NCBI GenBank assembly: GCA_038124905.1
Contig: JAYPCW010000003.1
Location: forward strand, 1 to 40,721
Source: Candidatus Nanopelagicales bacterium
GTDB lineage: Bacteria; Actinomycetota; Actinomycetes; S36-B12; UBA5976
Length of the DNA: 40,721 nt
Direction: 5' to 3'
Shown here piece after piece: positions 15,589 through 36,222 of this stretch; position 1 is the stretch's first letter, and the number at the start of each line of letters is the position of its first letter. The notes beneath the pieces were generated by a model. That model saw only the letters and a program-made list of their open reading frames with translations. It was not told the origin of the DNA and made no database searches. The translations under genes were made by a program, and so were the position numbers.

Positions 15589-16863
15589 TCACGTTACTTT
15601 GCCTGCAGAATCTCCTAGTTTTTGCCATTTACCACTGGCTGCATAATCTCTAATGCGCTCAAATCCAATGAAAACCTCTTCGTAACTGTTTATCAGCGGT
15701 GAAATTGCCACGCGCAAGCAATTAGGAACCCGGTAGTCAGGAACTAATTTCATTTCCTCTCTTAAACCGCGGGCAATTTTTTCGGCATGGGGGTGGTAGA
15801 GCGAAATATGCCCACCTCTCTTATTTGCGTCCCTCGGGGTAACCAACTCAAATCCCAAAGGCTTGAGCCATTCATCATGAAGTTGAATCATTAGGTCTGT
15901 GCCAATTTGTGCCTTTTTATTTATTTCTTTCAAAGTAGCTGCTTTGATCATCTCAAAACTAGTCTTTACACAGCGAAGGCCGATTATCGAAGGGCTCGCT
16001 ATTTGAAAACCTCTCATGCCTGAGGCTCGACTAAAATCTTGCCCCATATTGAATTGATCCTTTTGAGCAAACCAGCCTTGAATTGGCATTTCTAACTTTT
16101 CTTGTGCACTTTTTGACACATACATCCACGCAGGTGCGCCCGGCCCAGAGTTTCCGTATTTGTAAGTACAGCCAACTGCAAAGTCAACGCTTGAACTTTC
16201 ATATTGAATATCAACTACGCCAACTGCATGACTCGCATCCCACACGAAAGGAATGCCTTTCGACCTGGCGACTTCACCAAGTGCCACAACATCATGCAGA
16301 GCGCCAGATCTATAGTTCACTTGCGAGAGCGTTATGCAGGCAACTGAGTCATCTAAATAATTACTCAAAATTTCTGGCGTCACTAATTCGTCACTAATTC
16401 TATTCGGCAAAATTTCATTATCGATTAGTCTTATTTCTAAATTAAATTCTTTAGCTATTCCTTGCAACACATATCTATCTGTTGGAAAGTTAGCGCTATC
16501 AGTAACTAAGACTTTTTTACCTGGTCTTAAAGAAATTGCTGCTTTTATCAATCTATAAAAATTAACGCTTACCGTATCCATTACCAATACTTGCCCAGAC
16601 GCTGCACCTAATGCAGCTTCACCTAGTAAGTCGCCTACTTTTTCAGCTTCATCAATCCAATCTGCCCAACCTGCTACAACTTTTTTTCCCCACTCATCAA
16701 ATAGGAATCTATTAATTTCTGCAACCGTTGATTTTGGCAGACGACCAAGTGAGTTTCCATCTAGGTAGCAGGTAGCTGTCTCTGGGATTAAAAACTCATT
16801 GCGGTACCCACTTAAGGGGTCATTGGAATCTAAATCTTTTACATCATCTTTCGTTAGCATCAT
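15589..16863 (-). CDS. kynU: Kynureninase
   Basis: YLDGNSLGRLP, NFPTDRYV, WDASHAVG, VGCTYKYGNSGPGAP (PLP lysine), RGGH, DYR. Confidence 0.93.
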   Translation of the reverse strand: MMLTKDDVKDLDSNDPLSGYRNEFLIPETATCYLDGNSLGRLPKSTVAEINRFLFDEWGKKVVAGWADWIDEAEKVGDLLGEAALGAASGQVLVMDTVSVNFYRLIKAAISLRPGKKVLVTDSANFPTDRYVLQGIAKEFNLEIRLIDNEILPNRISDELVTPEILSNYLDDSVACITLSQVNYRSGALHDVVALGEVARSKGIPFVWDASHAVGVVDIQYESSSVDFAVGCTYKYGNSGPGAPAWMYVSKSAQEKLEMPIQGWFAQKDQFNMGQDFSRASGMRGFQIASPSIIGLRCVKTSFEMIKAATLKEINKKAQIGTDLMIQLHDEWLKPLGFELVTPRDANKRGGHISLYHPHAEKIARGLREEMKLVPDYRVPNCLRVAISPLINSYEEVFIGFERIRDYAASGKWQKLGDSAGKVT

Positions 16864-17583: not shown

Positions 17584-18387
17584 ATGGAAAATCTTGATAC
17601 CTCGAAAGCTGTTACCTATAGTAATTACTTAAGAGTTTCGGAGCTCTTAAACCTTCAAATCCCTCTTTCCGATGGCCCGGAACACGATGAATTGTTATTT
17701 ATTGTGATACATCAAACTTACGAATTATGGTTTAAGCAATTAATTCATGAATTTGATCGGGTATTTTTACTTATGAAAAATTTAGATTTATATGCGACTC
17801 TGGCTACTTTAAGCAGAATTCGTACAATTTACAAAACTTTAGTTGCTCAGATTGACATTTTAGAAACTATGACACCTGTGCAATTCAATACCTTCAGATC
17901 TAGACTGGAATCTGCCAGCGGCTTTCAATCTGCCCAATTTAGAGAAGTTGAGGTAATACTGGGTAGGCGTGATCGTCAGGCAATTAGTCACTTACCGCAA
18001 AATGAGCAAATAACTTTGAGAATTAGCGATCGAATGAAACGGCCCAGCGTTTGGGATGCAACGTTAAATTTTCTATCTAGAAAAAATTTTAAGGTACCAA
18101 GTGAAATACTAAATCGAAATGTTTCTGAACCCTATGTTCCAAACGAAAAAATAGAAATTGTCCTAGAAGAAATTTATAAAAATAATCCTGACGTTGCCTT
18201 GCTGTTTGAAAAGCTAATAGATATTGACGAAGGCCAACAAGAGTGGCGTTATCGACACGTAAAAATGGTAGAAAGAACCATTGGGAGAAAATCTGGCACC
18301 GGCGGATCAAGCGGAGCAAAATATTTATCCAGCACGCTATTTAATCCAATGTTTCCAGAACTATGGCAAGTGAGAAGTCGACTTTAA
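17584..18387 (+). CDS. kynA: Tryptophan 2,3-dioxygenase
   Basis: HDELLFIVIHQTYELWFKQ, LETMTP, ASGFQSAQFR, WRYRHVKMVERTIG, GTGGS loop. Confidence 0.95.
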   Translation: MENLDTSKAVTYSNYLRVSELLNLQIPLSDGPEHDELLFIVIHQTYELWFKQLIHEFDRVFLLMKNLDLYATLATLSRIRTIYKTLVAQIDILETMTPVQFNTFRSRLESASGFQSAQFREVEVILGRRDRQAISHLPQNEQITLRISDRMKRPSVWDATLNFLSRKNFKVPSEILNRNVSEPYVPNEKIEIVLEEIYKNNPDVALLFEKLIDIDEGQQEWRYRHVKMVERTIGRKSGTGGSSGAKYLSSTLFNPMFPELWQVRSRL

Positions 18388-18852: not shown

Positions 18853-19743
18853 TTAGGAGTTTAGCAGTGGCAAAACGGCTCCGGTAAGTGTTGCCGCTGC
18901 CATTAATTTACTTGGTTTAATTTGAATCTGATCTTGTGGGAACACGTGACTTCTTGCTTTTACTTTTTCAGCAACTTCGTCTACTAGTTTTGGGTACGCC
19001 AAAACTAGGCCACCACCCAAAACCACTATTTCAGGCGCATACAACACCAAAGCGTTAATGATCCCGATCGTTAACCAGTCTTCATAATTATCTAAGGCTT
19101 CTCTGGCACTTGAGTTGACTTTATTTAAAGAGGCAACGACTTCTGCAAAATTTTTAGCTCCAGATTCTTTTAGGATGGCACTTTGACAAACGCGGGTTTC
19201 CAAACAACCAGTTTGACCGCAAACGCAATAAATTCCATTGGGTTCGACAATCATGTGGCCAACTTCGCCGGCAAATCCATTACCTCCGGAATAGACCTCT
19301 CCCTCTACAACTAACGCCGCTCCAACTGCAGTGCCTAATGCCATTCCTAAAGTGATTCGCTTCTTTTTTCCGGCACCATAAAGTGCCTCAGCTAAGGCAA
19401 AAGAGTTAGCGTCATTTTCTAGGTGGCAAGAAAGTCCGGTACGAGATTCGATCTCTTTAGTAATAGAAACACCAGACCAATCGGCAGGCAAGTTTCCTGC
19501 GTAATTTACGCTTCCTGATTTAGTATCAACTAGGCCGGCAGTTGCGATTCCTACGCCATTAATTTCGGGGTGAAGTTGACGGTACTCCTGAATTTGATCA
19601 CAAATTGCATCAAAGATTTTTCCAGCAGAACTGTTGGGAGTAGGAATTCGTTCAATCTTTGAAGGTTTAGCTGTATCATCAATAATCTCAATTACCGAAG
19701 TTTTAATGCTACTTCCGCCAACATCGACCCCGACAAATTTCAC
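18853..19743 (-). CDS. ROK-family sugar kinase (no HTH); possible GlcNAc kinase
   Basis: GVDVGGS, LENDANSFALAE, LGTAVG, GEVGH...CVCGQTGCLE zinc motif. Confidence 0.88.
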   Translation of the reverse strand: MKFVGVDVGGSSIKTSVIEIIDDTAKPSKIERIPTPNSSAGKIFDAICDQIQEYRQLHPEINGVGIATAGLVDTKSGSVNYAGNLPADWSGVSITKEIESRTGLSCHLENDANSFALAEALYGAGKKKRITLGMALGTAVGAALVVEGEVYSGGNGFAGEVGHMIVEPNGIYCVCGQTGCLETRVCQSAILKESGAKNFAEVVASLNKVNSSAREALDNYEDWLTIGIINALVLYAPEIVVLGGGLVLAYPKLVDEVAEKVKARSHVFPQDQIQIKPSKLMAAATLTGAVLPLLNS

Positions 19744-19748
19744 AGAAG

Positions 19749-20135
19749 TTAGTCTTTATCAATAACTGCTACCACGTCAATTTCGACCAAGATGTTATAA
19801 AGATCTGAGCCAACTGTGGTGCGAGCAGGATATGGTTCAACGAAATATTCGCGATAAACCTTGTCATATTCTGCAAAATCTTCTAGCAAATTTTGTAGAT
19901 GTGACGTTACCTTCACCACATGAGAGAAATCAAGACCTCGTTCTGCCAAAACAGCCTTGATGTTGTCCAAAACTTGTCTTGTTTGTTCTGCAACATTAGA
20001 GCCCACAACTTCACCAGTGGTAGGTGACATTGGGCCGAAACCTGCGGTATATAAAAATCCATTAGCTTCAATGGCATGTGAATAAGATCCGCCTGGTTTT
20101 GCTGCATTTGACGACATAATTTGTTTTCTGCTCAT
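19749..20135 (-). CDS. RidA/YjgF/UK114-family imine deaminase
   Basis: YSHA, QTRQVLDNI, YPARTTV (catalytic Arg), LVEID. Confidence 0.92.
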   Translation of the reverse strand: MSRKQIMSSNAAKPGGSYSHAIEANGFLYTAGFGPMSPTTGEVVGSNVAEQTRQVLDNIKAVLAERGLDFSHVVKVTSHLQNLLEDFAEYDKVYREYFVEPYPARTTVGSDLYNILVEIDVVAVIDKD

Positions 20136-20144
20136 TACTCTCCT

Positions 20145-21368
20145 TTAAAAGTAAGTCAGATATAAATCTAATATCTGATAATCATCGCTAACCACTGGGA
20201 TCAATGGCCACTTATCAAAAGTGGTGCAGGGATGCGAAATACCAAATGCAACCAAGTCACCCACCTTCAATTCTTGGTTTTCAGTCTCAAGATAAATATG
20301 TTGATCATTGGTATTTAGAACTTTTCCAGTTAACTCTTTAATCGGTCCCGAATCTGCCTTGAACTTTAGAGCAAAGGGTAAATCGATATCTACAGAAATA
20401 TCTCGCTTGCCGCCATTGATGATCGCTAAATTGCTTTCTGGCCGAGAATTTACGATTGACCATACTTCAAGAGCTGGTAAAAAAAATGCGTCTGAATTTT
20501 GAGCAAAAGGATAAACTTCTGCATAAAATCCATGATCATGCGTGACGTATCCACCGCTTCTTAAAATTACTTTATACTCATCATCTTGAGTTAAGGGTTC
20601 TAATTCATCAACCACTAAATCAAAAAAAGCGCTGCCTCCAGCACTGACCAAAAAGGGTGTTTTCTCTTTCGGCTTTACTGATTGCGCAAAGCTAACAAGT
20701 AATTTCAAAAAATCCCTTACTTTATTTACGGAATCCGCAGATCGATCCTTGCCAAAAGTTCCTTCATAGCCAGAAACTCCTGCAAATGTCATATTCTTTG
20801 CGACAAGAATTTTTTCTACTAACTGATTAGCAACTGCTAAATCTCTAACGCCTGTTCTACCGTGGGATTTTCCGAGTTCCAGCAAAATATTAACTGGCTT
20901 CGTGGCACTTTTTTCTACAATTTCAAAACCAATTAATGAGTCTATGTAGAAATAAATTTCTGCTTCTTGCTCGCTTAGGTACTTAATTGAAGATGGATTA
21001 ACCACTTCATTGGCAATTATTATTTTGTCAAATCCGAACTCTAGAAAAGTTCTTGCTTGAGAAGCATTTGCCACCGTTACGCCCCATGAGCCATTTTCAA
21101 TTTGACGTTTAGCCAATTGTGGCGACATGTGAGTTTTGACATGTGGTGAGAGCAAAACATTGTGCTTCTTGCAAAAAGCGTCCATGGTTTTTAGATTTTG
21201 CTCTAGTGCGCTATCTAACATGATTGCTTGAGGCCACTGATAGCCGTCTAAAAATAAATTTTTTGATTGCTTTAAGTACTCTTCAATTGAAAGTCCCAAG
21301 GCACTTTCTGGCAAACCCCGAAACTTCCAACTTAATTTAGTGTTTTCAATCTCAGCAAAATTAAACAT
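20145..21368 (-). CDS. Fold-type III PLP D-amino-acid deaminase (DSD1-like, COG3616); candidate D-hexosaminate ammonia-lyase
   Basis: SPHVKTHMSPQL (PLP Lys), GRTGVR, GVSGYEG, SAGGSAFFD, LRSGGYVTHD, GKRD, NDQH, GISHPCTTFDKW. Confidence 0.85.
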   Translation of the reverse strand: MFNFAEIENTKLSWKFRGLPESALGLSIEEYLKQSKNLFLDGYQWPQAIMLDSALEQNLKTMDAFCKKHNVLLSPHVKTHMSPQLAKRQIENGSWGVTVANASQARTFLEFGFDKIIIANEVVNPSSIKYLSEQEAEIYFYIDSLIGFEIVEKSATKPVNILLELGKSHGRTGVRDLAVANQLVEKILVAKNMTFAGVSGYEGTFGKDRSADSVNKVRDFLKLLVSFAQSVKPKEKTPFLVSAGGSAFFDLVVDELEPLTQDDEYKVILRSGGYVTHDHGFYAEVYPFAQNSDAFFLPALEVWSIVNSRPESNLAIINGGKRDISVDIDLPFALKFKADSGPIKELTGKVLNTNDQHIYLETENQELKVGDLVAFGISHPCTTFDKWPLIPVVSDDYQILDLYLTYF

Positions 21369-22263
21369 TTGCCACCCTGGGGAATGCTAAGTGACCGCGA
21401 GCATTTAACTTTATTTTGTAAAGTGAAGAACTTGCCGCTATGTACAAAGTAGATAAATCTTTACCCCCAAATGTACAGTTACCTGGGATTTCACCAGTTG
21501 CGATAAAACCAAGATCGTTGCCATCAGGATCAATTATGTAGACTCCAGCTTTTTCGCCCTCTCCCCCTGTTACATACAAATTTCCTTCGGTATCCAAAAC
21601 CATTCCATCCATACCGTAACCATCTTTAAAATCTAAAAGTGTTCGGCTCCACTTCCATTCGGTTCCTTGAAGCACGTATTCTTCTAAAGTTCTTTTACCC
21701 CCGGGCTTAGGGTTGTGGTCAACTAAATAAAGTTTTTTATTGTCTTGTGAAATTAAGATCCCATTGGGGTACTGTAAGTCTGAAATTACTCTCGTAATTT
21801 GTAAGTCTGTGTCAATTTTATACACCGCCATACAGTCCTGCTCAATATCTTCGTCATATCCATATCGTGGATCAGTGAAATAGATGTTTCCTGCTTCATC
21901 AAAACATAAATCATTTGGGCCATTTAATTTCTTGCCTTGATATGAGGTTGCTAAATCAACAACTTCTCCATTTTTTTCATATCTTCTCACTGCGTGAGCG
22001 CCACCTTTTTCAGAAGATTCATATTTTTTTCCATCACAGCATGTGACTAACCTGCCTTGGTGGTCAAAGTTCATTCCGTTTGCATGTCCAGATTCAGCTG
22101 TCCAAATTTTTGTAGTGTTATCAAATTCGTTGTAAACATAAATTATATTTTCAGAGCAATCAGAAAAAAATACATTTCCTTTATCGTCCGCTGCTGGGCC
22201 TTCCGTAAAAACCCCTTGTGAAAAGACTCGCTCTAGCTTTTCACCATCAATGAAAATGCTCAT
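21361..22263 (-). CDS. SMP-30/gluconolactonase-family lactonase
   Basis: FTEGP, LNGPNDL, YFTDP, PNGI, DGMVLDTEGNLYV, NCTFGG. Confidence 0.92.
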   Translation of the reverse strand: MSIFIDGEKLERVFSQGVFTEGPAADDKGNVFFSDCSENIIYVYNEFDNTTKIWTAESGHANGMNFDHQGRLVTCCDGKKYESSEKGGAHAVRRYEKNGEVVDLATSYQGKKLNGPNDLCFDEAGNIYFTDPRYGYDEDIEQDCMAVYKIDTDLQITRVISDLQYPNGILISQDNKKLYLVDHNPKPGGKRTLEEYVLQGTEWKWSRTLLDFKDGYGMDGMVLDTEGNLYVTGGEGEKAGVYIIDPDGNDLGFIATGEIPGNCTFGGKDLSTLYIAASSSLYKIKLNARGHLAFPRVANV

Positions 22264-23870
22264 GCCTTACTCCAAAATTTGGGGTTCCGAACTGATCGCC
22301 CTGCTACTAAATCGGTGCGTTTACGGTTTTTAATAACATACTCACCCGCTATAAAAACGTGTTCGATGCCTTCTGATTGTTCTCGCGGTTTTTCATAAGT
22401 CGCTCTATCTACTACCGTGTTTGGGTCAAACAAGACTAAGTCTGCTATCTGGCCTGGCTTTACAAATCCTCTATCCTTCAAGCCAATTCGAGTCGCCGGC
22501 CTTCCAGTCATGCGAGCGACCGCCCCTTCCAGCGAAATTACTTTTTCATCTCTGGCATAAACGCCAAGAATTCGCGTAAAACAACCCCATGCTCTTGGAT
22601 GTGGTCTCTTGCCAAACAAAATCCCATCGCTTCCAATCATGTGCTTTTCGTGCTGCATAATTGCGCGAACATTTTCTTCATTACCGGCAAATATCACGCA
22701 AGAAGCTTCAAAATCTTCATCAACAATTAAATCTAGATAAGCTTCAGCGACATCTTTATTCACATTTTTTGCGTATTGCTCTAAATTCATTCCTATCGAA
22801 TTATTGTTACTCGGTCGATTGACATGCGCAATAATCACTGCTGACCAATTAACCGGAGCTCCTTGGTTTCCATCAGTGCCAACGACTTTTAATTCATGAA
22901 TCAGCTTTGCTCTTGCATCGGAATTTTCTATTCGGTCTTTTGCCTTTTTCAGCCCACCTTCATTAATCCACGAAGGTAAAAAGGCATGTAGATAAGTCAT
23001 TCCCGCTAAATAAGGATAACTATCTAATGACACATCAATATTGTTAATTTTGGCTTGGGCTAATTTGTCCAGTAATAAATTAGCTCTGCCCCAAAATTTT
23101 GGAGCACTCAAGTGGCAATGAGTCAAATGCAATGGGCAATCAGATTTTTTTGATATATCTAGACACTCATCAACTGCATCTAAGAATCCCAAACCATAAT
23201 TTCTATGATGTGGTGCGTAGTAACCACCATGATGGGCAACCGTCTTACACAATTCAACCAATTCGTCATCATGTGCATAAATTGCTGGAGTGTAAGTGAG
23301 GCCAGCTGACATTCCTACAGCTCCTTCTTTCATGCTTATTTCAGTAATCGTTTTCATTTCATTTAGTTCGTTTTCAGTGGCATAGCGAGCTGCTCCACCC
23401 ATAACTAACATTCGCAATGTGCCGTGCGGTAACAACATCGCAACATTAAGTGCCGAACCTTGGTCGATTTTGTCTAGATATTCCCCAATGCTTGAAAAAT
23501 CTAATTTTGACAGCTCAGGCTTTCCATTCCAACCAGCAAGTTGTTGAGCTAATTCCGCTTTGGTTTCTGGATTAACTGGCGCATAACTCAAGCCATCTTG
23601 ACCGACTACTTCTAGAGTTACCCCTTGAGTAGTTTTGGCTAAATGTTCTTTATCTTGCAGAACAGCAAGATCTGAGTGGGAATGCATATCTATAAACCCA
23701 GAAGAAACTGCCAATCCAGTCGCTTCAATTTGTTCACCTAGCGAGTTTGATTTACCAGGAGGAGTGATTTCTTGAATACGTCCCTGATGAACCACGACAT
23801 CACCGTTGTAACCTGGTTCCCCAGTTCCATCAACTACTAAAGCGTTTTTTATTACAAACGAATTAGAAAT
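22260..23870 (-). CDS. N-acyl-D-amino-acid deacylase family amidohydrolase; probable ATT (23870) or ATA (23876) start
   Basis: GFIDMHSHSD, GVTLEVVGQDG, IGSDG...HPR, GQIADLVLFDP. The conserved N-terminus IKNALVVDGTGEPGYNGDV lies upstream of the track GTG (23795). Confidence 0.88.
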   Translation of the reverse strand: MSNSFVIKNALVVDGTGEPGYNGDVVVHQGRIQEITPPGKSNSLGEQIEATGLAVSSGFIDMHSHSDLAVLQDKEHLAKTTQGVTLEVVGQDGLSYAPVNPETKAELAQQLAGWNGKPELSKLDFSSIGEYLDKIDQGSALNVAMLLPHGTLRMLVMGGAARYATENELNEMKTITEISMKEGAVGMSAGLTYTPAIYAHDDELVELCKTVAHHGGYYAPHHRNYGLGFLDAVDECLDISKKSDCPLHLTHCHLSAPKFWGRANLLLDKLAQAKINNIDVSLDSYPYLAGMTYLHAFLPSWINEGGLKKAKDRIENSDARAKLIHELKVVGTDGNQGAPVNWSAVIIAHVNRPSNNNSIGMNLEQYAKNVNKDVAEAYLDLIVDEDFEASCVIFAGNEENVRAIMQHEKHMIGSDGILFGKRPHPRAWGCFTRILGVYARDEKVISLEGAVARMTGRPATRIGLKDRGFVKPGQIADLVLFDPNTVVDRATYEKPREQSEGIEHVFIAGEYVIKNRKRTDLVAGRSVRNPKFWSKA

Positions 23871-23872
23871 TT

Positions 23873-24655
23873 TTATCCCTGTGCCTCTATCACTCTAAAC
23901 ATCGGCGCTGGTCCGGCAAGCAATCCGCCATCTATTACTACTTCGGTGCCACTCATCCAACCTGATTCATCAGAAGCTAAAAATAAAACTACATTTGCTA
24001 CATCTTGCGGGGTTCCCACTCTACCCATTGGGTACCAAGCCTTTAAGTCTTCAAAAACTTGTGGATTCCTTTTAGCTCGCTCACTCCAAATCTCAGTAGC
24101 GATTGTTCCTGGAATAACTGTGTTAGAGCGAATACCGTCTTTGCCATACCTAGTTGTAATGGTTCTGGCAAAAGCTAAAACACCAGCTTTAGCAATGGAA
24201 TAAACATCTGAGCCATACATTCCCTTAGCATTCACGGTAGCAATGTTTATGATGTTGCCTTTTTTCTTAGCAATCATGTCTGGCATAACTGCCGTGGTGC
24301 ACAAAAAAGCGCCATTAAGAACTACCGTCATGGTGCGATCAAATTCATTTATGTCAGTGCCAAGCAGATCTTCAGTCTTTGGCAGATATGTCGCATTATT
24401 AACAAGCACATCTACCACGCCAAGGTCATTTTTTATTTGGGTAAAAACATTTTTTACATCTTCAGGTATAGAAATGTCTAGTTTGTAAGCTTTTGCGCCT
24501 GGTATTTCTGCAGCAGCTGCTTTGGCGCCCGCTTCGTCCAAATCAACGAGTGCAACCTTGGCGCCGCTCGCACCAAAGTCTTTTGACATTTGTTTGCCAA
24601 TTCCACGACCAGCTCCAGTGACTACAACAACTTTATTTTCTAGACTCTTATACAT
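23873..24655 (-). CDS. Short-chain dehydrogenase (candidate amino-sugar 1-dehydrogenase)
   Basis: TGAGRGIG, VNNA, YSIAK. The segment PGTIATEIWSERAKRNPQVFEDLKAWYP resembles, from memory, the PRK07074 group. Confidence 0.85.
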   Translation of the reverse strand: MYKSLENKVVVVTGAGRGIGKQMSKDFGASGAKVALVDLDEAGAKAAAAEIPGAKAYKLDISIPEDVKNVFTQIKNDLGVVDVLVNNATYLPKTEDLLGTDINEFDRTMTVVLNGAFLCTTAVMPDMIAKKKGNIINIATVNAKGMYGSDVYSIAKAGVLAFARTITTRYGKDGIRSNTVIPGTIATEIWSERAKRNPQVFEDLKAWYPMGRVGTPQDVANVVLFLASDESGWMSGTEVVIDGGLLAGPAPMFRVIEAQG

Positions 24656-24658
24656 TAA

Positions 24659-25489
24659 TTACTTTATGCTTCCTGCGGTTAAGCCCGAGACTAACCACTT
24701 CTGAATCGAACTAAATAAAATCACAACAGGAATGATAGAGATTACAGCTGCTGCAAATAGGTAATTCCATTGGACTTGATACTGGCCAATAAAGGTATTA
24801 ATACCAACTGTTAGTGGCCGAGTTTCAATTGTACTCGTTAAAGTCAAAGCTATAACAAATTCATTCCATGCTGCAATGAAGGTAAAGATTAGCGCAGTAG
24901 CGATGCCCGGCAAAGCTAATGGAATCGTGATTTTACGTAAAGCGGTAAACCTTGAGCAGCCATCAATAAATGCGGCGTCTTCTATTTCACTTGGTATGCT
25001 AGAGAAAAATCCTGCCATAATCCATATTGCAAATGCCAAATTAAAAGCAGCGCTAACTAAAACTAAAGAAGTAAAAGTATTCACTAGGCCTAGAGTCACG
25101 ACTTCTCGATAAATACCAACGACAAGAGCCACAGGCGAAAGCATTTGAGTAACTAACACTAATAATAGGAAAATACTTCTGCCTCTGAACTTAAAGCGGG
25201 CCACGTAATATGCTGCTGGCAAGGCAACGATTAAAACCACCAGAGTCGCCATTATTGAAATAATTAACGAATTCTTTAGATATGTTGCAATCGGTGCATT
25301 ATTAAAGGTCTCAATAAAATTATTCCATTGCCAATCAGTAGGCAGATACAAAGCAGGCATTTCGAATAATTCATCATCTGGCTTTGTAGCGGTTGTCAAC
25401 ATATGTAGATAAGGAACCGCAAACAAAAACGCAACCACATAGCCGGTAAGAGCAACAACTGTTGTTTTGATGAAACCCTTAATTTTCAT
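24659..25489 (-). CDS. Carbohydrate ABC transporter permease (MalG-like)
   Basis: EAA loop IPSEIEDAAFIDGC, FIAAWNEF, multiple TM helices. Confidence 0.93.
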   Translation of the reverse strand: MKIKGFIKTTVVALTGYVVAFLFAVPYLHMLTTATKPDDELFEMPALYLPTDWQWNNFIETFNNAPIATYLKNSLIISIMATLVVLIVALPAAYYVARFKFRGRSIFLLLVLVTQMLSPVALVVGIYREVVTLGLVNTFTSLVLVSAAFNLAFAIWIMAGFFSSIPSEIEDAAFIDGCSRFTALRKITIPLALPGIATALIFTFIAAWNEFVIALTLTSTIETRPLTVGINTFIGQYQVQWNYLFAAAVISIIPVVILFSSIQKWLVSGLTAGSIK

Positions 25490-26384
25490 TTTGTTGCCTC
25501 CAGCCTGAGACTCGCAAAAACAACAATATGAACAAGAAAATGATCACAAAATTAAAGGTTGCCAGTGCTCCAGACTGCCCCATTTCTTGCATCCTAAAGG
25601 CTAATTTGTACATAAAAGTAGTAGTTACATCTGTCGAATTTCCTGGACCTCCTTGGGTCATCACCCAAATGATTGGAAAATTATTAAACACATTAATTAA
25701 ATTAATGACGGTTGCAACAAGTAAGGCTGGTCTCAATAGCGGAAACACTATTCGCCAATATGTCCTCCATTTTGAAGAACCATCAACTTCGGCCGCTTCT
25801 CTAATCTCATTAGGAATGGTTTGCAAGCCTGCCAACAAAACGAAGCTGGTAAATGGAAGTGACACGAAAACTGCCACAAAAACCATCCAAGCTAATGCAA
25901 CATTTGGATAACCCAGCCAGTCAACTGGCTCATCCAAAATCTTTAGATCCATTAAAACCGTGTTAAAAAAGCCGTAGAAGCCATTGAGCATCCACCGGAA
26001 AGTCAAGGCTGTTGAAAAAACCGAAGCTGCCCAAGGAAGAATAATCATCCAACGAACCTGCGTTCGCCCTGGAAATTTTTGATTCAAAAGTGAGGCTAGC
26101 GGCAAAGAGATCGCAGATGTCAGAATTACAATGGAAATTACCCAAAAAAAAGTTCTTAAGAAAATTGATGGCAGCTCTGGGCGCGCTAAGAGTTCTGCAT
26201 AATTTTGAAATCCAACATAGCCAAGAATTAGACCTGTACGCGATACTTCACGAAATGAAGTTCTAACCATTTCAAAGGCTGGCCAAAAAACCCATGTGGC
26301 AATCAATAAAATCGCGGGCAAAATCCAGGGTAACGGGCCGAGACGAGGTCTTCTAAATTTTTTGTCAGCCCTGAAATTTGACAT
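25479..26384 (-). CDS. Carbohydrate ABC transporter permease (MalF-like)
   Basis: VGFQNY, LAGLQTIPNEIREAAEVDGS, MTQGGP. Confidence 0.93.
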   Translation of the reverse strand: MSNFRADKKFRRPRLGPLPWILPAILLIATWVFWPAFEMVRTSFREVSRTGLILGYVGFQNYAELLARPELPSIFLRTFFWVISIVILTSAISLPLASLLNQKFPGRTQVRWMIILPWAASVFSTALTFRWMLNGFYGFFNTVLMDLKILDEPVDWLGYPNVALAWMVFVAVFVSLPFTSFVLLAGLQTIPNEIREAAEVDGSSKWRTYWRIVFPLLRPALLVATVINLINVFNNFPIIWVMTQGGPGNSTDVTTTFMYKLAFRMQEMGQSGALATFNFVIIFLFILLFLRVSGWRQQNEN

Positions 26385-26494: not shown

Positions 26495-27769
26495 TTAACC
26501 TTGTTCAGCTAAGGCTTGAATTGCGCCTAACACGCCAGAGGCGTCATCTAGGGCTAATCCAACCTTTTGCTGCATTTCGGTTTGTACTGCTGGCCAGTTT
26601 GCAAGATCACCTGGGTAGAAAATCGCACCAGGCATCAAGTCAATGAATGGACCAATTGCAGGATCGCTCTTAGCTGCTTCTCCAGCTGAAACAGTCGCGG
26701 GAATGAATCCACCAGCTGCTTCTAGGAATGCTAAGTAGTTGTCGGGCTCATAGAGGAAATCCATGAATGCCTTAACTGCTTGCTGATTACCATCTTTCTT
26801 GAAACCAAAGAAGTAATCTTGTACACCTAAGGTGATTGCAGTCTTTCCTTCATTGTGCGGGAATCCTGAAATACCGAAATCAACGGTGCTTCCTTGATCC
26901 GACAACACTGATGGGAAGAATACTGAACCATTAACCATTGCAATCTTTCCTTCACCAAAAAGTTGGAAAACTTCGGTGCGGTTAGTGGTTGCAGGGTTTG
27001 GTTGAGTGTAACCGGCATCAACCATTGACTTTAGGAATTCAACTGCTTCAATATTTTCAGCAGAATTGATGATCCACTGACCATCTTTGTAAACTCCTCC
27101 GCCATTTCCACCAGCCCAAATTGTAAATTCTGCCTGTGCCTCTTCAGGTCCTAGCGGAATTCCGTATGGGTATACACCTGGAACATTTGCCTTGATTGCA
27201 GCAGCAGCTGCTTCAAGTTCTGCCCAAGTAGTTGGTGGTGTGGTTATTCCAGCTTGTTCAAAAACCTCTTTGTTGTAGAACATCGCACGAGCAGATGCCA
27301 AGTCTGGCACTGCGTATGCGGTTCCGTCATACTTAGAGTTATTTAAGAATGCAGGAACAATGTCAGCTAAAACTTCTGGGCTGACGATGTCTTCTGCTGG
27401 GTATAGCAATCCGTCTGCTGCAAAATTAGCAAAGACGTTTGAGTTTGCAATGTCTGGAGCTTGACCAGTTGAAACCAAGGTCGCCAACTTGTCGTTTAAT
27501 TGTTCCCAGTTCACTACTTCTACAGTTGCAGTTACACTTGGGTTTTGCTCCATAAATCTTGCAGCCAAATCATCAAAATATGGTTGCATCCGATCGGTAT
27601 ATTGTGCCATCACAATATAAAGATCAGTCGCTGGAATTTCACCAGCTACCTCAGTGGTGTCAGTTGAAGAAGAAGTATCTTCAGCAGCATCTTCCGAGGC
27701 GCCACTTGAGCAAGCGGCCAACAAAACTGCAAGAGCAGCAATGCCGGCGAGGCTTCGCTTTAAGCGCAT
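26495..27769 (-). CDS. Carbohydrate ABC transporter solute-binding lipoprotein
   Basis: Lipobox LAAC, acidic Ser/Thr linker, FYNKEVFEQAGITTPPTTWAEL, FGEGKIAM; strong RBS AAGGAGG. Confidence 0.92.
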   Translation of the reverse strand: MRLKRSLAGIAALAVLLAACSSGASEDAAEDTSSSTDTTEVAGEIPATDLYIVMAQYTDRMQPYFDDLAARFMEQNPSVTATVEVVNWEQLNDKLATLVSTGQAPDIANSNVFANFAADGLLYPAEDIVSPEVLADIVPAFLNNSKYDGTAYAVPDLASARAMFYNKEVFEQAGITTPPTTWAELEAAAAAIKANVPGVYPYGIPLGPEEAQAEFTIWAGGNGGGVYKDGQWIINSAENIEAVEFLKSMVDAGYTQPNPATTNRTEVFQLFGEGKIAMVNGSVFFPSVLSDQGSTVDFGISGFPHNEGKTAITLGVQDYFFGFKKDGNQQAVKAFMDFLYEPDNYLAFLEAAGGFIPATVSAGEAAKSDPAIGPFIDLMPGAIFYPGDLANWPAVQTEMQQKVGLALDDASGVLGAIQALAEQG

Positions 27770-27862: not shown

Positions 27863-28921
27863 TTAAGAGCCTAACTCAGATTCCAATTGTGTGATCTTCG
27901 ACAAGTGCCGAGGGGCATCAGGATTCAAGCCGATCTGGGTTGCTAAGGCTTCGACCAGTAATTGAGCCTGAATTAGCGTTATAAAAACGTGGCTTAACTC
28001 GCTCCAAGTAGATTCACTATATATATAAGTATAGGGATCAGTTTGAGGGAAATCTCCAAAAATAATTGGTACCACCCCCGCCCCAAAGGCTCTTTTCGCG
28101 ATAACTTCTAACTCGCGGTTCGACCGATGACTTTGTCCATTAGTGAAAATCAGTAAATTCTCATCTTCTTCAAACAGCGCTTTGGTGCCGTGCTGAAGCT
28201 CAGCAACCGTTATTCCAATTGCATCCACATAGCAGGTTTCGCGAAATTTCAACGCAACTTCCAGAGCGATATTTTCAGTGAAGCCATTGCCGCAGGAAAT
28301 CATTGTTTTTGCATTTTTTAATTTCTCTACTGCAGCCGTTAATTCAGTTTTTTCGATTACCTTCTGGGCTAATTTAGGTAAAGTTTTTAACTCTTCTAAG
28401 GCTTTATTGTTCTCACCCAATATCGCAGCGATAAGTGTAATTGCTAAGAGTGCCGTTGAATATGACTTAGTTGCTGGTACCGCAATCTCTTTTCCAGCCA
28501 AAGTTGAAATTGCTAAATCTGCCATCTGCTCCAATGTGGAGTTTGGATTGTTTGAGATCGCAAGAGTTGCAGCACCGTTTTGCTTTGCCCACCTAAGTGC
28601 TGCAATAGTTTCTCTCGTCTCACCTGATTGTGAGACGGCAATTGCCAAGGTATTTCTTAAATCTAATTTTGATTCAAAGTCAATGGCAATTTCTATACTT
28701 TGTGGTTGAGCTTGAATATTTGCCAATTCTGCAAAAACATATTGAGAAAAATTTGCGGCATTAGCGCTAGATCCCCTGGCTAATGTAATTACTCTTTCGC
28801 AATCAGTTGATTTCCAAAGTTCTCTTATTGGAATTGATTTTTCAAGAATGCTGTTAAAAGTTTCTTCCAAGGCATTTGGTTGTTCAAGTATTTCTTTTTT
28901 CATCTGACTAATCAAAGTCAA
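27863..28921 (-). CDS. Double-SIS protein; GlmS-isomerase-like glucosamine-6-phosphate deaminase (NagB-II type)
   Basis: ARGSS, VSQSGET, AGKEIAVPATKSY, ALKFRET, ELQHG, NPDAPRHLSKIT; no glutaminase domain. Start may be TTG 28915. Confidence 0.82.
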   Translation of the reverse strand: MTLISQMKKEILEQPNALEETFNSILEKSIPIRELWKSTDCERVITLARGSSANAANFSQYVFAELANIQAQPQSIEIAIDFESKLDLRNTLAIAVSQSGETRETIAALRWAKQNGAATLAISNNPNSTLEQMADLAISTLAGKEIAVPATKSYSTALLAITLIAAILGENNKALEELKTLPKLAQKVIEKTELTAAVEKLKNAKTMISCGNGFTENIALEVALKFRETCYVDAIGITVAELQHGTKALFEEDENLLIFTNGQSHRSNRELEVIAKRAFGAGVVPIIFGDFPQTDPYTYIYSESTWSELSHVFITLIQAQLLVEALATQIGLNPDAPRHLSKITQLESELGS

Positions 28922-30032
28922 CCTCTTCGCCTAAGTGCCAAACCCTGCTTGTTAAGCCACTCTCGGATAAAAGTGCTAGGTCGGCTCTAAGCCCCTTCTT
29001 AATTTCGCCTCGGTCGGTCAGTCCTAGAGCTTTTGCAGGCGTTGATGTCGCAGCTGCAATAGCCAGCTCTGCAGGGATGCCACAATCAATAACATTTTTA
29101 ATTGATTGATCCAAACGAACTGCACTACCAGCTATAACTCCATCTTTACGCTTTGGTGGTTCATTTTTCTTTACTTCAATAACCTGATCACCAAGGTCGT
29201 AATCACCTTCAGGCATTCCCAAGGCTGTCATTGCGTCGCTAACCAAAATAGCTCTATCTGCCGCCGATTGAAAAATTAGTTTTAAAATTTCTGCGCTCAA
29301 GTGGTGCAAATCAGCAATCGTTCCTAGGTAAAGTTTCGAGTTAATTAATCCTTGCAAAGCAAGGCCGCCCTCTCGGTGATGAACTCCCGACTGAGCATTA
29401 AATATATGTGTAATCATTTGGGCACCGCTGGCAACAGCTGCTTCAGTTTGCTCACTTGTCGCCATTGAATGACCAAGGCTCACAAGCACTCCTTGTCCAA
29501 CCAAATAGGAAATCGCTCCTTGAGAATTTGCTAATTCTGGGGCAAGCGTGAGTATCTTTACCTTTTTTTCAACTAATAGTTCCTTTATTTCAGCTAAATT
29601 AATTTCTCTAATTTGCTTCTCTTCATGAGTGCCGCGAGCAGCCTTTGAGATATAGGGCCCTTCCAGGTGAACCCCTAACATATCCGAGATTCCCTTATCG
29701 CTAGCGAGTTCGATTTGAGCTAATTGTCGTAACAAGTTTTTTTGACTAGCTGTAATAAGTGTTGGAAAAAACCCAGTAACACCAGTCTTGATTATCTCTT
29801 TTCTGAATGCTTGAAAACCTTCGCTATCGGTCTGCTGAAAATCTATTCCAAATCCACCATTTATCTGCAAATCGATTAGTCCGGGAGTTAATACTCCTTC
29901 ACCATCAGCGATTCTGATGTCTGAACCACTCTCAATTTCATTTGTGACATCGACAATTCTTGGGCCTTCAATTTCAATTGTTGCTGGTGTGATTTGACCA
30001 TTTACAAAAGCGCGAGCAGCTGAGATCTTCAA
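28908..30032 (-). CDS. nagA: N-acetylglucosamine-6-phosphate deacetylase
   Basis: PGLIDLQING, HLEGPY, TLAPE, SLGHS, THIFNA, IADLHH, LVSDA. Confidence 0.92.
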   Translation of the reverse strand: MKISAARAFVNGQITPATIEIEGPRIVDVTNEIESGSDIRIADGEGVLTPGLIDLQINGGFGIDFQQTDSEGFQAFRKEIIKTGVTGFFPTLITASQKNLLRQLAQIELASDKGISDMLGVHLEGPYISKAARGTHEEKQIREINLAEIKELLVEKKVKILTLAPELANSQGAISYLVGQGVLVSLGHSMATSEQTEAAVASGAQMITHIFNAQSGVHHREGGLALQGLINSKLYLGTIADLHHLSAEILKLIFQSAADRAILVSDAMTALGMPEGDYDLGDQVIEVKKNEPPKRKDGVIAGSAVRLDQSIKNVIDCGIPAELAIAAATSTPAKALGLTDRGEIKKGLRADLALLSESGLTSRVWHLGEEVDFD

Positions 30033-30065: not shown

Positions 30066-31253
30066 TTAATCGTTCTTTAGCGGTTGGAGGCTTAAGCTGT
30101 TTTTGATTTCAAATTTCTTCAATAATGAGATAGTCGACAAGGCAAACAAAATTGCCACAAAGCCCCAGGCAACTTGATAACTGGCGAATCGATCCACTAA
30201 GAACCCAAAAAATACTGGGCTAGAAGCAATCCCCACATAAAACCCAAACAGAACTACACCTGTCGCCTGACCGGTCGCAGATTTATCGACACCGTTTATC
30301 ACCATTAACATGCCTACGCTGTTCCAACTCATAGCAGTAATGCCAAGTAACAAAGTTGCGGCCCAAATTATCCAGATATTAAAAATATTTCCATATGAAA
30401 TCAACACAATGCCAAGGGCAGCAATAACTGCCATGGTAATTAATAATTCGCGACCAATTTGAACTTTGCCTGCGAGCCAACCCCAGAAAACTCGAGCAAA
30501 GAGGGCCACTATGCCAAAAGTTCCAAATAAGGCACCTGCGGCCGACAAAGAAAAGTTTAAACTCTCTACAAAATAGAGTGGCAAATATGCAGTCAAGCAA
30601 GAGATGGCAGCACCATTAAAAAACCCGTAAATTGCAATCAAATAAACCGGTTTTGGTAATTTCCTAGTTGCAGTTTTATATTGTTCTTCGATTTTGCGCT
30701 CTGGAATAAAGATCAAACTCAGCAACAAGGCAGCCACCGGAATTAATACTGTGAGTGCTAATCCAATCCTCCAGCCAAAAATCACTACTAGCGGCGCTAA
30801 AGCGAAACCTGCTGCACTAGCTCCCAACTGAACTCCAGACTGCTTTATGCCGGTAATCGGCCCTCTAATTCGTGTTGGGATTTCATGGGCGATGACTTTA
30901 TTTGTAATTGGGTTTCCAAATGCCAAAGTGATTCCAGCAAAAGCACTGAGGGCGAGAATAAATAAATAGTTGGTGGTTACAGAGATCAGCAGTAACGAAA
31001 CTGCCACAATCATCATTGCGTAAATCGTTATTTTCCGAACGCCAATTTTGTCAACAAATCGCCCAGCTAATATCGAACCAAACCCTCCAATTACAAATGA
31101 GACGGTCGTGGCAAGCCCCAGCTCGGACCTTGAAAGTGAAAATTCTCTAATTAAATCCGGTCCTAAAACACCAAAGGCGTATCCTAAAAAAGTACTTGTT
31201 CCCATAATTAGCGTTATGCTGATGGTTATCCCACTAACAGAAATTTTTTTCAC
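30066..31253 (-). CDS. MFS transporter
   Basis: About 12 hydrophobic segments; motif A GRFVDKIGVR; RGPITGIKQSGV. Confidence 0.88.
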   Translation of the reverse strand: MKKISVSGITISITLIMGTSTFLGYAFGVLGPDLIREFSLSRSELGLATTVSFVIGGFGSILAGRFVDKIGVRKITIYAMMIVAVSLLLISVTTNYLFILALSAFAGITLAFGNPITNKVIAHEIPTRIRGPITGIKQSGVQLGASAAGFALAPLVVIFGWRIGLALTVLIPVAALLLSLIFIPERKIEEQYKTATRKLPKPVYLIAIYGFFNGAAISCLTAYLPLYFVESLNFSLSAAGALFGTFGIVALFARVFWGWLAGKVQIGRELLITMAVIAALGIVLISYGNIFNIWIIWAATLLLGITAMSWNSVGMLMVINGVDKSATGQATGVVLFGFYVGIASSPVFFGFLVDRFASYQVAWGFVAILFALSTISLLKKFEIKNSLSLQPLKND

Positions 31254-34656: not shown

Positions 34657-35727
34657 GTGAACAGGGCAGATCTAGACGAATTAAGAAAATTTAGAGGAAC
34701 TCCAGTTATTTCAATTCTGGCACCTACTCATAGACATGCGCCTGAAAATCAAGCAGACCCCATCTTAGTAAAGAATTTGATTAATGAAGCAAAAGCTAAA
34801 TTATTGGAATTACAAGACAAGCGTGAGGCTGCTATCACTATTGAGAACATTGACAAAGTTATTAGCGAAATTGATTGGGAAAACCTTTTAGATGGAGTCG
34901 CAATTTACGCAAATGGCAAGGGTTATTGGGCCTATGACTTACCTTTCTCTCCGCAACCAGCAGCCATAGTTGAAGAAACATTTGCCGTTCGAGAATTAGT
35001 AAGAGCCTTGAATCGTTCCTACCGATATCGAGTTTTAGCATTAAGTGAGTCACCTACTCGGTTATTTTTAGGCGATAGAGATCGTTTGGTAGAGATTAGA
35101 TCTGGCTTTCCATTGGTTCATGACGGGCCTGGTGGCAAAGAAGGGCTTCCAACCGATTACGGGCAACGCACTTCTGTGGTGCGTGATGAAAATCATCGCC
35201 AATTCTTTAGAAAAGTTGAAGAAGCACTAAAACAGGCAACTAAAAATGATCCAGCCCCGCTGTTTATTACCGGTGTCGACCGCTATATCTCTTTCTGGAA
35301 TGAGGTAGCTCCGGAATTTAAACCAGCAGCTGTAATTAATGGCAGTTTTGACTACATGAAGTCAAGTGAGTTAGCCACGCATGTTTGGCCCGAAGTAGAA
35401 AGATATTTTGCTAATCAAAGAAGTTCAATGTTGGAGCGAATTGAAAAATCAATTGCTTCTCATCATTTTGCTGGAGGAGTCAGCGAAGTATTCGAGGCGG
35501 CTAACCAATCTCGAATTGAATTATTAATCGCTCCAGAGGATTCCATGATCCCAACTTGGCTAAATGAAGAAAAAACTCAAGTAAACCAGCCGGGTAACGG
35601 CGTGGAAATTCCCGATGTCGTTGATGAAACTGTGGAGCGAGTGCTCGATTCTGGGGGCAGCATCATGTTTCTACCAGCCGCTGATCTCGAAAAATACGGA
35701 CAGATTGCCGCAATTCTTCGTTACTAA
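34657..35727 (+). CDS. Bacterial archaeo-eukaryotic release factor-like protein (baeRF3; Balon-like ribosome hibernation candidate)
   Basis: PVISILAPTHRHAPENQADPILVKNL, LDGVAIY, ETFAVRELV, YRVLALSE, and an L7Ae-like C-terminus ending IAAILRY; no GGQ. Confidence 0.82.
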   Translation: MNRADLDELRKFRGTPVISILAPTHRHAPENQADPILVKNLINEAKAKLLELQDKREAAITIENIDKVISEIDWENLLDGVAIYANGKGYWAYDLPFSPQPAAIVEETFAVRELVRALNRSYRYRVLALSESPTRLFLGDRDRLVEIRSGFPLVHDGPGGKEGLPTDYGQRTSVVRDENHRQFFRKVEEALKQATKNDPAPLFITGVDRYISFWNEVAPEFKPAAVINGSFDYMKSSELATHVWPEVERYFANQRSSMLERIEKSIASHHFAGGVSEVFEAANQSRIELLIAPEDSMIPTWLNEEKTQVNQPGNGVEIPDVVDETVERVLDSGGSIMFLPAADLEKYGQIAAILRY

Positions 35728-35787: not shown

Positions 35788-36222
35788 ATGCCGTTTTGGA
35801 TGTGGCTGGCTGTTGCCGCTGCGCTACTAGTCGTTGAAATGCTCACCGTAGATCTGCTATTTGCTTCTTTAGCTCTTGCTGCAGTCGCTGCTGCGATCGC
35901 TGCTGGATTCGGCTTAGGAGGAATTAGTCAAGGTCTAGTTTTTGGAGTTTTTGCTGCCCTCTCGCTTTTTCTTTTGAGACCGATTGCGCTTCGGCATTTA
36001 AAAAAACGTCCGGCAAATTTTGCAACGAATGTTGAGGCGCTTGTCGGTGCTGAAGCTTTCACGACTAGTGAAGTAACAGAACGTGGTGGAAACGTTAAAT
36101 TAAACGGTGAGATTTGGACTGCCCGTTCAACTTCTGGAGTAATAGAAAAAGATGCCAAAGTATTTGTTTGGGCAATTGAAGGTGCAACTGCTGTTATTAA
36201 ACCCATAGGAGAAAAACCATGA
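35788..36222 (+). CDS. NfeD-like protein (short, YbbJ type)
   Basis: Hydrophobic N-terminus, OB-fold VKLNGEIWTARS; ATGA-coupled to the SPFH gene. Confidence 0.9.
   Translation: MPFWMWLAVAAALLVVEMLTVDLLFASLALAAVAAAIAAGFGLGGISQGLVFGVFAALSLFLLRPIALRHLKKRPANFATNVEALVGAEAFTTSEVTERGGNVKLNGEIWTARSTSGVIEKDAKVFVWAIEGATAVIKPIGEKP

Follow-up and report, generated by a model that had tools for sequence, protein, structure and literature searches.

What could a short-chain dehydrogenase/reductase (SDR), an amidohydrolase, an SMP-30 lactonase, a pyridoxal phosphate (PLP) enzyme and a RidA protein, encoded side by side, be doing among the amino-sugar genes of an actinobacterium? We addressed this question in a 40,721-nt stretch of DNA from a Candidatus Nanopelagicales bacterium (GenBank assembly GCA_038124905.1, contig JAYPCW010000003.1, positions 1 to 40,721), which is referred to here as the window and is contig C3 of a 1.24 Mb genome comprising 115 contigs with 90.55% completeness. 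Our answer, to which we assign a probability of roughly 55% in its full five-step form, is that the five genes make up an oxidative branch within a 12-gene operon for amino sugars, in which an N-acetylhexosamine would be oxidised, deacetylated and deaminated without being phosphorylated beforehand.

Twelve co-oriented genes run on the minus strand of the window (GC content 41%) from position 31253 down to 18853. In the order of transcription they encode a major facilitator superfamily (MFS) transporter, NagA, a SIS-domain protein, an ABC solute-binding protein (SBP), permease 1, permease 2, the SDR, the amidohydrolase, the lactonase, the PLP enzyme, RidA and a ROK-family kinase. The five genes in question abut or overlap: the SDR gene follows permease 2 after a 3-nt gap, the amidohydrolase and lactonase reading frames overlap by 4 nt, those of the lactonase and the PLP enzyme by 8 nt, and gaps of 9 nt and 5 nt separate the PLP enzyme from RidA and RidA from the ROK kinase, respectively. 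An initial annotation, made from the letters alone, had described five co-oriented, abutting or overlapping genes located after a sugar ABC transporter and amid amino-sugar genes, and this description agrees with the coordinates, the junctions and the Pfam and NCBIfam assignments. All five family names were likewise correct, and NagA and RidA scored above the curated equivalog or subfamily cut-offs of NCBIfam. Only the listed order, with the lactonase placed ahead of the deacylase, had to be changed. A congener (genome G017) has all 12 genes in syntenic arrangement, at 65–92% amino-acid identity.

In the proposed route, an N-acetylhexosamine, either N-acetylglucosamine (GlcNAc) or N-acetylgalactosamine (GalNAc), would enter the cell through the CUT1-family ABC system and be oxidised at C1 by the SDR to its 1,5-lactone. 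The SMP-30 lactonase would open the lactone to an N-acetylhexosaminate, and the amidohydrolase would remove acetate, although lactone opening and deacetylation could be reversed. The fold-type-III PLP enzyme would then eliminate the C3 hydroxyl and the amino group, and RidA would speed hydrolysis of the enamine/imine to 2-keto-3-deoxygluconate (KDG) or 2-keto-3-deoxygalactonate (KDGal) plus ammonia. Finally, a PfkB-type KDG/KDGal kinase and an Eda-type aldolase, both encoded elsewhere, would yield pyruvate and glyceraldehyde-3-phosphate. We infer the substrate of every enzyme, the identity of the sugar, which could be galacto- rather than gluco-configured, and the order of the two middle steps.

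The steps from deacetylation to the aldolase would mirror a demonstrated gammaproteobacterial route. According to the main text of Jiang et al. 2022 (PMC9537276), OngB of Pseudoalteromonas prydzensis ACAM 620 deacetylates 2-acetamido-2-deoxy-D-gluconate (GlcNAc1A), OngC, a fold-type-III PLP enzyme, converts 2-amino-2-deoxy-D-gluconate (GlcN1A) to KDG and NH3, the RidA protein OngD is essential in vivo, and KdgK phosphorylates KDG; the OngB and OngC steps were shown both in vitro and by knockouts. The same text reports the ong cluster from Gammaproteobacteria and one betaproteobacterium. The structure of the Pseudoalteromonas enzyme, PpOngB (PDB 9kb1 and 9kb3), and its defining residues are described in the main text of Wang et al. 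2025 (PMC12017989). Like the ong cluster, the window encodes a D-aminoacylase-fold amidohydrolase, a fold-type-III PLP enzyme and RidA together, and the predicted chemistry, N-acetyl-2-amino-aldonate to 2-keto-3-deoxy-aldonate plus acetate and NH3, involves no prior phosphorylation. Unlike it, the window lacks a TonB receptor, an SSS-family transporter, a family 20 glycoside hydrolase (GH20) of the OngA type, a MurR/RpiR regulator and KdgK, and the genome lacks an AA10 lytic polysaccharide monooxygenase (LPMO); it has instead a CUT1 ABC importer, the SDR, the SMP-30 lactonase, an actinobacterial host and a deacetylase of another subfamily. The chain from N-acetylhexosamine to a KDG-type product that the initial annotation had put forward is thus borne out in its second half by the homologous Ong families, and its SDR and lactonase half is supported by gene context. 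Its suggestion that COG3616 PLP enzymes are linked to glucosaminate use is substantiated by OngC (PMC9537276), and its view of the operon as undescribed stands for Actinomycetota and fails for the second half, given the Pseudoalteromonas work.

Two further systems share parts of this chemistry. Pathways of the De Ley–Doudoroff and semi-phosphorylative Entner–Doudoroff types open with a pair formed by an SDR and an SMP-30 lactonase, and their last steps are catalysed by a 2-keto-3-deoxy-acid kinase and an aldolase. The proposed route resembles them in its entry from sugar via lactone to aldonate and in its exit through a KDG(al) kinase and an aldolase, and differs in that the aldonate carries a C2 N-acetylamino group and in that deacetylation and PLP-dependent ammonia elimination replace the dehydratase. 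The phosphotransferase system (PTS)/6-phosphate amino-aldonate system also uses PLP-dependent elimination of a 2-amino-2-deoxy-aldonate to a 2-keto-3-deoxy product, but it handles the 6-phosphate formed on PTS uptake, its PLP enzyme has an unrelated fold and it contains no deacetylase, SDR or lactonase.

The PLP enzyme (20145–21368, minus strand) is a fold-type-III protein of the DSD1/OngC-like type, matching PF14031 with 62.1 bits, PF01168 with 43.9 bits and the PDB entry 3gwq, ‘D-serine deaminase’, at 4.8e-67. Residues K78 (in PHxKT), H379 and C381 were invariant in 19 homologues; we take K78 to be the PLP lysine and H379/C381 to be the C-terminal His-x-Cys metal motif. The protein therefore possesses the features of DSD1/OngC-like dehydratases, namely the Ala_racemase_N and D-ser_dehydrat domains, the lysine and the His-x-Cys motif, and we propose that it is a hexosaminate ammonia-lyase giving KDG or KDGal. 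The RidA enamine/imine deaminase (19749–20135, minus strand; TIGR00004, 110.5 bits against a cut-off of 106.25) would be the counterpart of OngD.

The amidohydrolase (22260–23870, minus strand), proposed as the deacetylase of the N-acetylhexosaminate or of its lactone, has the D-aminoacylase fold and showed full-length homology to AfDam, the D-aminoacylase of A. faecalis (PDB 1m7j, 9e-80), BbDam, an N-acyl-D-glutamate deacylase from Bordetella (3gip, 2.4e-71), and PpOngB (9kb1, 1.6e-65). No ATG, GTG or TTG is present at its N-terminus. The start given by the ORF finder is GTG 23795, the frame is open to 23870, and the stretch between these positions encodes the conserved N-terminal strand of the protein. 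At 23870, behind an AGGGA, stands an ATT that G017 shares and that lines up with the start codons (ATG or TTG) of homologues. This ATT is the likely start codon, and gene callers would lose 25 residues by starting at GTG 23795. Residues were mapped through a HMMER alignment of the protein to AfDam, combined with the OngB equivalences stated in the main text of PMC12017989; the positions of OngB Gln298 and AfDam Leu298 lie outside this alignment. Equivalents of the HxH motif, His220, His250, the catalytic Asp366, Tyr192, Tyr283 and Arg377 (AfDam numbering) were conserved, as were those of the OngB anchor residues Tyr194, Tyr285 and Arg379. The hydrophobic pocket of AfDam (Phe191, Met254 and Met346), a signature of classical D-aminoacylases, is replaced by Thr, Ser and Ala, which are small or polar like Ala193, Ala256 and Gly348 of PpOngB.

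This pocket bears on one other explanation, in which the deacylase, the PLP enzyme and RidA salvage N-acetyl-D-amino acids or D-amino acids, for example N-acetyl-D-serine or -threonine from cell walls or algae, and the SDR and lactonase are unrelated to them. AfDam, a true D-aminoacylase, was the best PDB match, OngC also deaminates D-Ser and D-Thr (main text of PMC9537276), and a Klebsiella plasmid that was considered as an ong cluster, and discarded as such, holds just RidA, an amino-acid ABC system and a PLP homologue. A deacylase homologue on Haloferax pHV4, which we did not use as support for the oxidative route, stands in a peptide context, next to genes for a dipeptide epimerase and an ABC system for peptides. 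Against such salvage, the pocket positions of the window deacylase are polar or small rather than hydrophobic, the importer is of the sugar type, the SDR and lactonase genes are interleaved with the others in overlapping reading frames, and the cluster co-occurs with a KDG(al) kinase and an aldolase in several lineages. We regard this explanation as very unlikely indeed.

The oxidative route was next compared with related loci. A profile of the PLP enzyme detected at least 594 relatives in a collection of species-representative genomes, and the best 80 loci were examined by tblastn with the window proteins at a coverage of at least 50%. A RidA homologue was located near the PLP gene in 46 of these 80 loci, the deacylase in 42 (mostly from Actinomycetota; 29 of the 48 loci having at least 5 kb on both sides), and deacylase and RidA together in 35. 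The initial annotation had named co-occurrence of all five families in other genomes as a check, and here it found no support: none of the 80 other loci contained the complete set, which was found in the window’s genus alone. The arrangement is nevertheless not a chance one, since the block is syntenic in G017 and sub-blocks of it recur in other lineages. Within the genus, the PLP gene was present in two of 18 congeners (G005 and G017), and it was found in none of 22 further relatives.

The clusters were of two types. The acid-import type comprised Amycolatopsis- and Actinophytocola-type loci and a Tsukamurella plasmid record (RefSeq annotation) with the order RidA, IclR and sugar kinase, followed by PLP enzyme, deacylase, 2-keto-3-deoxy-6-phosphogluconate (KDPG) aldolase and gluconate:H+ symporter. 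The Tsukamurella deacylase is 45% identical to that of the window and of the same subfamily, and the cluster is an actinobacterial analogue of ong. The sugar-import type, found in Ca. Nanopelagicus, Planktophila and SCGC-type genomes and in Undibacterium- and Sapientia-type loci, contained a CUT1 ABC system, SDR, PLP enzyme, RidA, deacylase and a protein of about 396 amino acids. In Sapientia aquatica (L042, 2361–13393), eleven genes encode DgoK, an SBP, two permeases, RidA, the 396-aa protein, the SDR, an ABC ATPase, the PLP enzyme, the deacylase and DgoA. DgoK is a 2-keto-3-deoxygalactonokinase (PF05035) and DgoA a 2-keto-3-deoxy-6-phosphogalactonate (KDPGal) aldolase (NF006600, 267 bits against 207), and the deacylase is of the classical Cys/Lys type. 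Since this cluster encodes every post-deamination step, its SDR should act before deamination, and the galacto-specific exit points to GalNAc, not GlcNAc, as the likely sugar of that lineage; the cluster looks like a complete route from GalNAc to pyruvate and glyceraldehyde-3-phosphate. A broader proposal, which we advance tentatively and at somewhat less than even odds, is that a complete route from a neutral N-acetylhexosamine, possibly GalNAc, operates without phosphorylation of the sugar in abundant streamlined freshwater/estuarine Actinomycetota and, separately, in freshwater Oxalobacteraceae, and that it employs a so far unassigned gene for N-acetylhexosamine 1-dehydrogenase and a new Asp/His/His subfamily of D-aminoacylase-fold carbohydrate deacetylases. 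Were this so, it would run counter to the main text of PMC9537276, in which phosphorylation is given as the invariable first step of amino-sugar breakdown, and ong chemistry would extend beyond substrates derived from LPMOs.

The SDR (23873–24655, minus strand) is a classical member of its family (PF13561, 206 bits; PF00106, 156 bits) with TGxxxGxG, NNAG-like and YxxxK motifs in its translation. Strand beta-2 ends in an Asp (VALVDLD), which, following SDR classification, we take to indicate the NAD+ preference expected of a catabolic dehydrogenase. Homologues with at least 36% identity occurred in 14 of the 35 loci containing deacylase, RidA and PLP enzyme, and these loci represented two phyla. 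From its gene context, the protein would be an NAD+-dependent N-acetylhexosamine 1-dehydrogenase. The proposed activity corresponds to that of N-acetylhexosamine 1-dehydrogenase (EC 1.1.1.240) and of N-acylmannosamine 1-dehydrogenase, itself an SDR; to our knowledge, no gene has been assigned to the former.

The SMP-30/gluconolactonase-family protein (21361–22263, minus strand) matched PF08450 with 136.8 bits against a cut-off of 26.3, and its best PDB match was a putative gluconolactonase (3e5z, 5.5e-27). Its translation has no evident signal peptide and thus appears cytoplasmic, and the protein was 86% and 80% identical in G017 and G005, respectively. We propose that it is an N-acetylhexosamino- or hexosamino-1,5-lactonase. 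Among 29 lactonase loci that were read, one has a lactonase, 29% identical to that of the window, beside a PLP homologue and RidA. It lies in an unrelated actinomycete with 74% GC (G102; L133 = G102:C4, 7845–16583) and consists of an amino-acid-type SBP, a permease, two ORFs without a Pfam family, an ORF with a maltokinase N-terminal cap domain, and then, consecutively, SDR, SMP-30 lactonase, PLP enzyme and RidA; a deacylase is absent. This string is the best single support for an SDR and a lactonase feeding a PLP enzyme with a 2-amino-aldonate, and the locus itself may encode an oxidative pathway for an amino sugar in its free, non-acetylated form.

The same pieces can be assembled differently. 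GlcNAc1A, its 1,5-lactone or chitobionic acid produced by the LPMOs of other organisms may be imported and processed by the lactonase and the Ong-type enzymes, with the SDR accessory or unrelated and the ROK kinase, NagA and SIS protein handling GlcNAc. Scavenging of oxidised chitin is what the ong pathway does (main text of PMC9537276), the lactones released by LPMOs equilibrate with the acid (main text of PMC12017989), and the genome’s lack of an LPMO fits a cross-feeder. Such scavenging would also account for oxidative and phosphorylative modules in one operon, and SDR-less clusters with a gluconate-type symporter, a kinase and an aldolase exist in the Tsukamurella and Amycolatopsis-type loci. 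However, the SDR is translationally coupled in the operon and recurs in the 14 related clusters mentioned above, G102 pairs an SDR directly with a lactonase, import is by a sugar system of the CUT1 family and not by an anion transporter, and no GH3 or GH20 beta-N-acetylhexosaminidase that could split oxidised dimers was found in the genome. We therefore consider the scavenging of oxidised chitin unlikely, and retain the oxidation of an imported neutral N-acetylhexosamine as the preferred reading.

Several observations weigh against this preferred reading. In the amidohydrolase, the metal ligand Cys96 is replaced by Asp, so that the Cys/His/His site of OngB is missing; the carboxylate-binding Lys252/254 is replaced by His; and Ser289/291 is replaced by Met, where most clade members have Ser. 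At the OngB specificity positions, Ser290 is replaced by Gly and Ser292 by Thr, and the segment from the YPY motif to the Met346 position spans 110 residues versus 63, an insertion 47 residues longer. The D-aminoacylase label of the initial annotation holds for the fold, and the protein departs from the residue signatures of OngB and of classical D-aminoacylases alike. The motif ‘GQDGLSY’ in place of ‘GNCG’, and with it Asp at the Cys96 position, is shared by the window protein and 28 of 43 aligned deacylases neighbouring PLP homologues, including all Nanopelagicus-type and Amycolatopsis-type ones, whereas Burkholderiales deacylases retain the Cys, the Lys and the short insertion. Judged by these alignments, the window amidohydrolase is a member of a separate subfamily and no orthologue of OngB. 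Its substrate could accordingly differ, and the assignment of an OngB-like function is one of context, not of residues.

The front end of the route meets similar objections. The SDR scored just below the cut-off of the glucose 1-dehydrogenase subfamily model NF005559 (207.2 against 215), and its relatives are generic, the best PDB matches being FabG-like, with 4nbu at the top, or unnamed SDRs. A lactonase was present in none of the 42 other deacylase-containing loci; among the 80 PLP loci it occurred in two, a 3.3-kb contig of congener G005 and a locus with a weak match of 31%. Lactonase homologues (E ≤1e-20) were present in 60 of 401 genomes of the class (400 genomes searched together with the window’s genome, including the unpublished G405 and G067, which were used for this count and nothing else), and the best of them outside the genus is 42% identical and lies in another context. 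The constant companion of the SDR elsewhere is the 396-aa protein, which accompanied it in 12 of the 14 clusters with SDR, deacylase and PLP enzyme, the other two loci being truncated. This protein (L011:17281–18468, L042:6851–8044 and 11 further loci) belongs to no Pfam or NCBIfam family and occurs in Nanopelagicus-type and Undibacterium-type genomes but not in the window’s genome. Its predicted structure was a TIM barrel with a pLDDT of 89 and a pTM of 0.90, resembling GH42 and GH35 galactosidases, the PgaB C-terminal domain and Cwp19 with TM-scores of 0.5–0.6 at about 10% identity; its placement in the Atlas was nearest to GHL10, DUF4015 and GH42 clusters, and it has a C...CxCxxC cluster and an HGxHHE motif. 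On the basis of this model, it may be a glycosidase for an imported disaccharide, an analogue of the lactonase, or something else. A constant partner that is a glycoside hydrolase-like barrel rather than a lactonase hints at a different or additional role of the SDR, and weakens the equation of ‘SDR partner’ with ‘lactonase’. In addition, a complete phosphorylative GlcNAc route comprising the ROK kinase, NagA and the SIS deaminase is encoded in the same operon, beside which a second GlcNAc route looks redundant.

A last difficulty concerns the fate of the product. A search of the 90.55% complete genome found no KDPG aldolase (PF01081) and no clear KDG kinase. Its PfkB genes, all outside the window, encode a ribokinase and, next to an MsiK-like ATPase, a fructokinase-like kinase; the window itself has no PfkB gene and thus no in-cluster KdgK of the ong type. 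In the genus, PF01081 was detected just in G005 and G017 of the 18 congeners, exactly the two other carriers of the PLP cluster, a co-occurrence that is suggestive only, as congeners are not independent. In G017, an island (L102 = G017:C15, 8522–12227) holds the aldolase (TIGR01182, 183.6 bits against 156) after a PfkB kinase whose best model is a KDG/KDGal kinase (163 bits, below cut-off), and the pair faces a gluconate/galactonate-dehydratase-like gene. The genes flanking this island match the ends of two short contigs of the window’s genome, C89 and C99, so the absence of the aldolase is most simply an assembly gap, and we dropped it as evidence against a KDG product. The aldolase was present in all five genomes searched from Nanopelagicus-type cluster-bearing loci.

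These results also bear on an alternative that places the SDR later than deamination. It would then oxidise KDG or KDGal in the manner of the 5-dehydrogenase KduD or of the 4-dehydrogenases in non-phosphorylative deoxy-sugar routes, and the starting compound would enter as an aldonic acid or lactone. SDRs are the usual 2-keto-3-deoxy-acid dehydrogenases, the sequence of the window SDR gives no clue to its substrate, and the missing aldolase and kinase would fit such a role. That absence coincides with the assembly gap, though, and both a KDG(al) kinase and Eda are encoded in cluster-bearing sister genomes. Sapientia has DgoK and DgoA besides the SDR and needs no downstream dehydrogenase, the window cluster contains no gene for a diketo-acid hydrolase, and KduD-type models were not among the 25 best NCBIfam matches of the SDR. 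A post-deamination role is thus very unlikely in our estimation, and oxidation of the N-acetylhexosamine at C1 remains our preferred assignment for the SDR.

As to novelty, the deacetylase, PLP deaminase and RidA half is already known from Pseudoalteromonas and occurs here in a diverged actinobacterial form. The main texts of PMC9537276 and PMC12017989 mention no Actinobacteria, sugar dehydrogenase or lactonase, although their supplements may list non-gammaproteobacterial homologues; within those texts, the actinobacterial version, the deacetylase subfamily without the OngB signature, and the dehydrogenase and lactonase front end are all absent. The literature searched, which did not extend to these supplements, contained no description of a dehydrogenase plus lactonase entry or of an oxidative GlcNAc pathway. 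It also yielded nothing relevant on glucosaminate ammonia-lyase/dehydratase, galactosaminate, N-acetylglucosaminate, 2-acetamido-2-deoxy-galactonate (GalNAc1A) or dehydrogenases of N-acetylhexosamine, N-acetylglucosamine or N-acetylgalactosamine, and nothing relevant joining Nanopelagicales/acI, N-acetylglucosamine and D-aminoacylase. The front end and the unusual deacetylase thus appear to be new, and the entry by dehydrogenase and lactonase is a reasonable reading supported by context. If it is correct, there would be a second, oxidative entry into amino sugars that by-passes sugar kinases. The activity of N-acetylhexosamine 1-dehydrogenase would gain candidate sequences, the deacetylases with the changed metal site would make up a new subfamily, and ong chemistry would reach far beyond the marine Gammaproteobacteria from which it was described.

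The remaining genes of the block, all on the minus strand, would serve transport and the phosphorylative route. The first encodes the MFS transporter (30066–31253; PF07690, 146.6 bits), which has only weak NCBIfam and PDB matches and is 83% identical and syntenic in G017. It is followed by NagA, N-acetylglucosamine-6-phosphate deacetylase (28908–30032; TIGR00221, 236.4 bits against 225.65), and by a two-SIS-domain, GlmS-C-like protein (27863–28921; PF01380) resembling sugar-phosphate deaminases/isomerases of the NagB-II type, with 196 bits to the glmS model and 152 bits to the NagB-II model, both below cut-offs. The CUT1-family solute-binding lipoprotein (26495–27769; PF01547, PF13416) has generic sugar-binding proteins as its best PDB matches, and PDB searches with it and with the MFS transporter gave no clue to a ligand. 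Permease 1 (25479–26384) and permease 2 (24659–25489) were identified from their ORFs and translations; the former is 54–58% identical to permeases of Nanopelagicus/Planktophila-type clusters, and the latter is conserved in related clusters. The last gene encodes the ROK-family sugar kinase (18853–19743; PF00480, 182 bits), whose best NCBIfam model is N-acetylglucosamine kinase (134.6 bits, below cut-off) and which is probably a GlcNAc kinase feeding NagA. The ROK kinase and the SMP-30 lactonase are additions peculiar to the window’s genus.

The host is a streamlined aquatic actinobacterium; its class contains genomes of 8–10 Mb. Among named organisms, the closest homologues of the cluster genes belonged to Ca. 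Nanopelagicus, Ca. Planktophila and other Actinomycetota. No LPMO (PF03067), GH3 (PF00933) or GH20 (PF00728) was found in the genome, which suggests that the organism probably takes up monosaccharides released by others. Both GlcNAc and GalNAc rank among the major sources of carbon and nitrogen in lakes and estuaries, and small planktonic actinobacteria consume GlcNAc. Near-identical DNA (at least 0.88 of sampled words) was detected in 14 DNA runs from at least eight studies, possibly including the source sample, and these runs were labelled estuary, seawater, marine, aquatic or freshwater.

RNA libraries from four studies contained contigs that matched the genes for the SBP, SDR, deacylase, PLP enzyme, RidA and ROK kinase with 90–100% identity. 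One of them (19439–20258) bridges the junctions of ROK kinase, RidA and PLP enzyme, although such contigs do not prove that these genes are transcribed together, and DNA may be present in RNA libraries. The contig cover from four runs leaves out 21237–22130 (lactonase gene) and parts of the permeases, and these gaps are uninformative on expression. Contig depth was highest on the SBP gene, at about 100–480 compared with less than 20 on the enzyme genes, and these depths cannot rank expression. A promoter and terminator scan returned fewer sites than were found in shuffled sequence and was discarded.

Some neighbouring genes were also recorded. Between dxs and the ROK kinase gene, a kynureninase-like gene (15589–16863) and a tryptophan 2,3-dioxygenase gene (17584–18387) flank a TetR-like gene; in the syntenic interval of G017, dxs and the TetR gene are kept and both kynurenine-pathway genes are absent. 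On the other side of the block, the ORF at 34657–35727 matched family 3 of the bacterial archaeo-eukaryotic release factors (baeRF; PF18845, 118 bits); an SPFH/Band 7 gene (36219–37088) follows downstream, after one further ORF.

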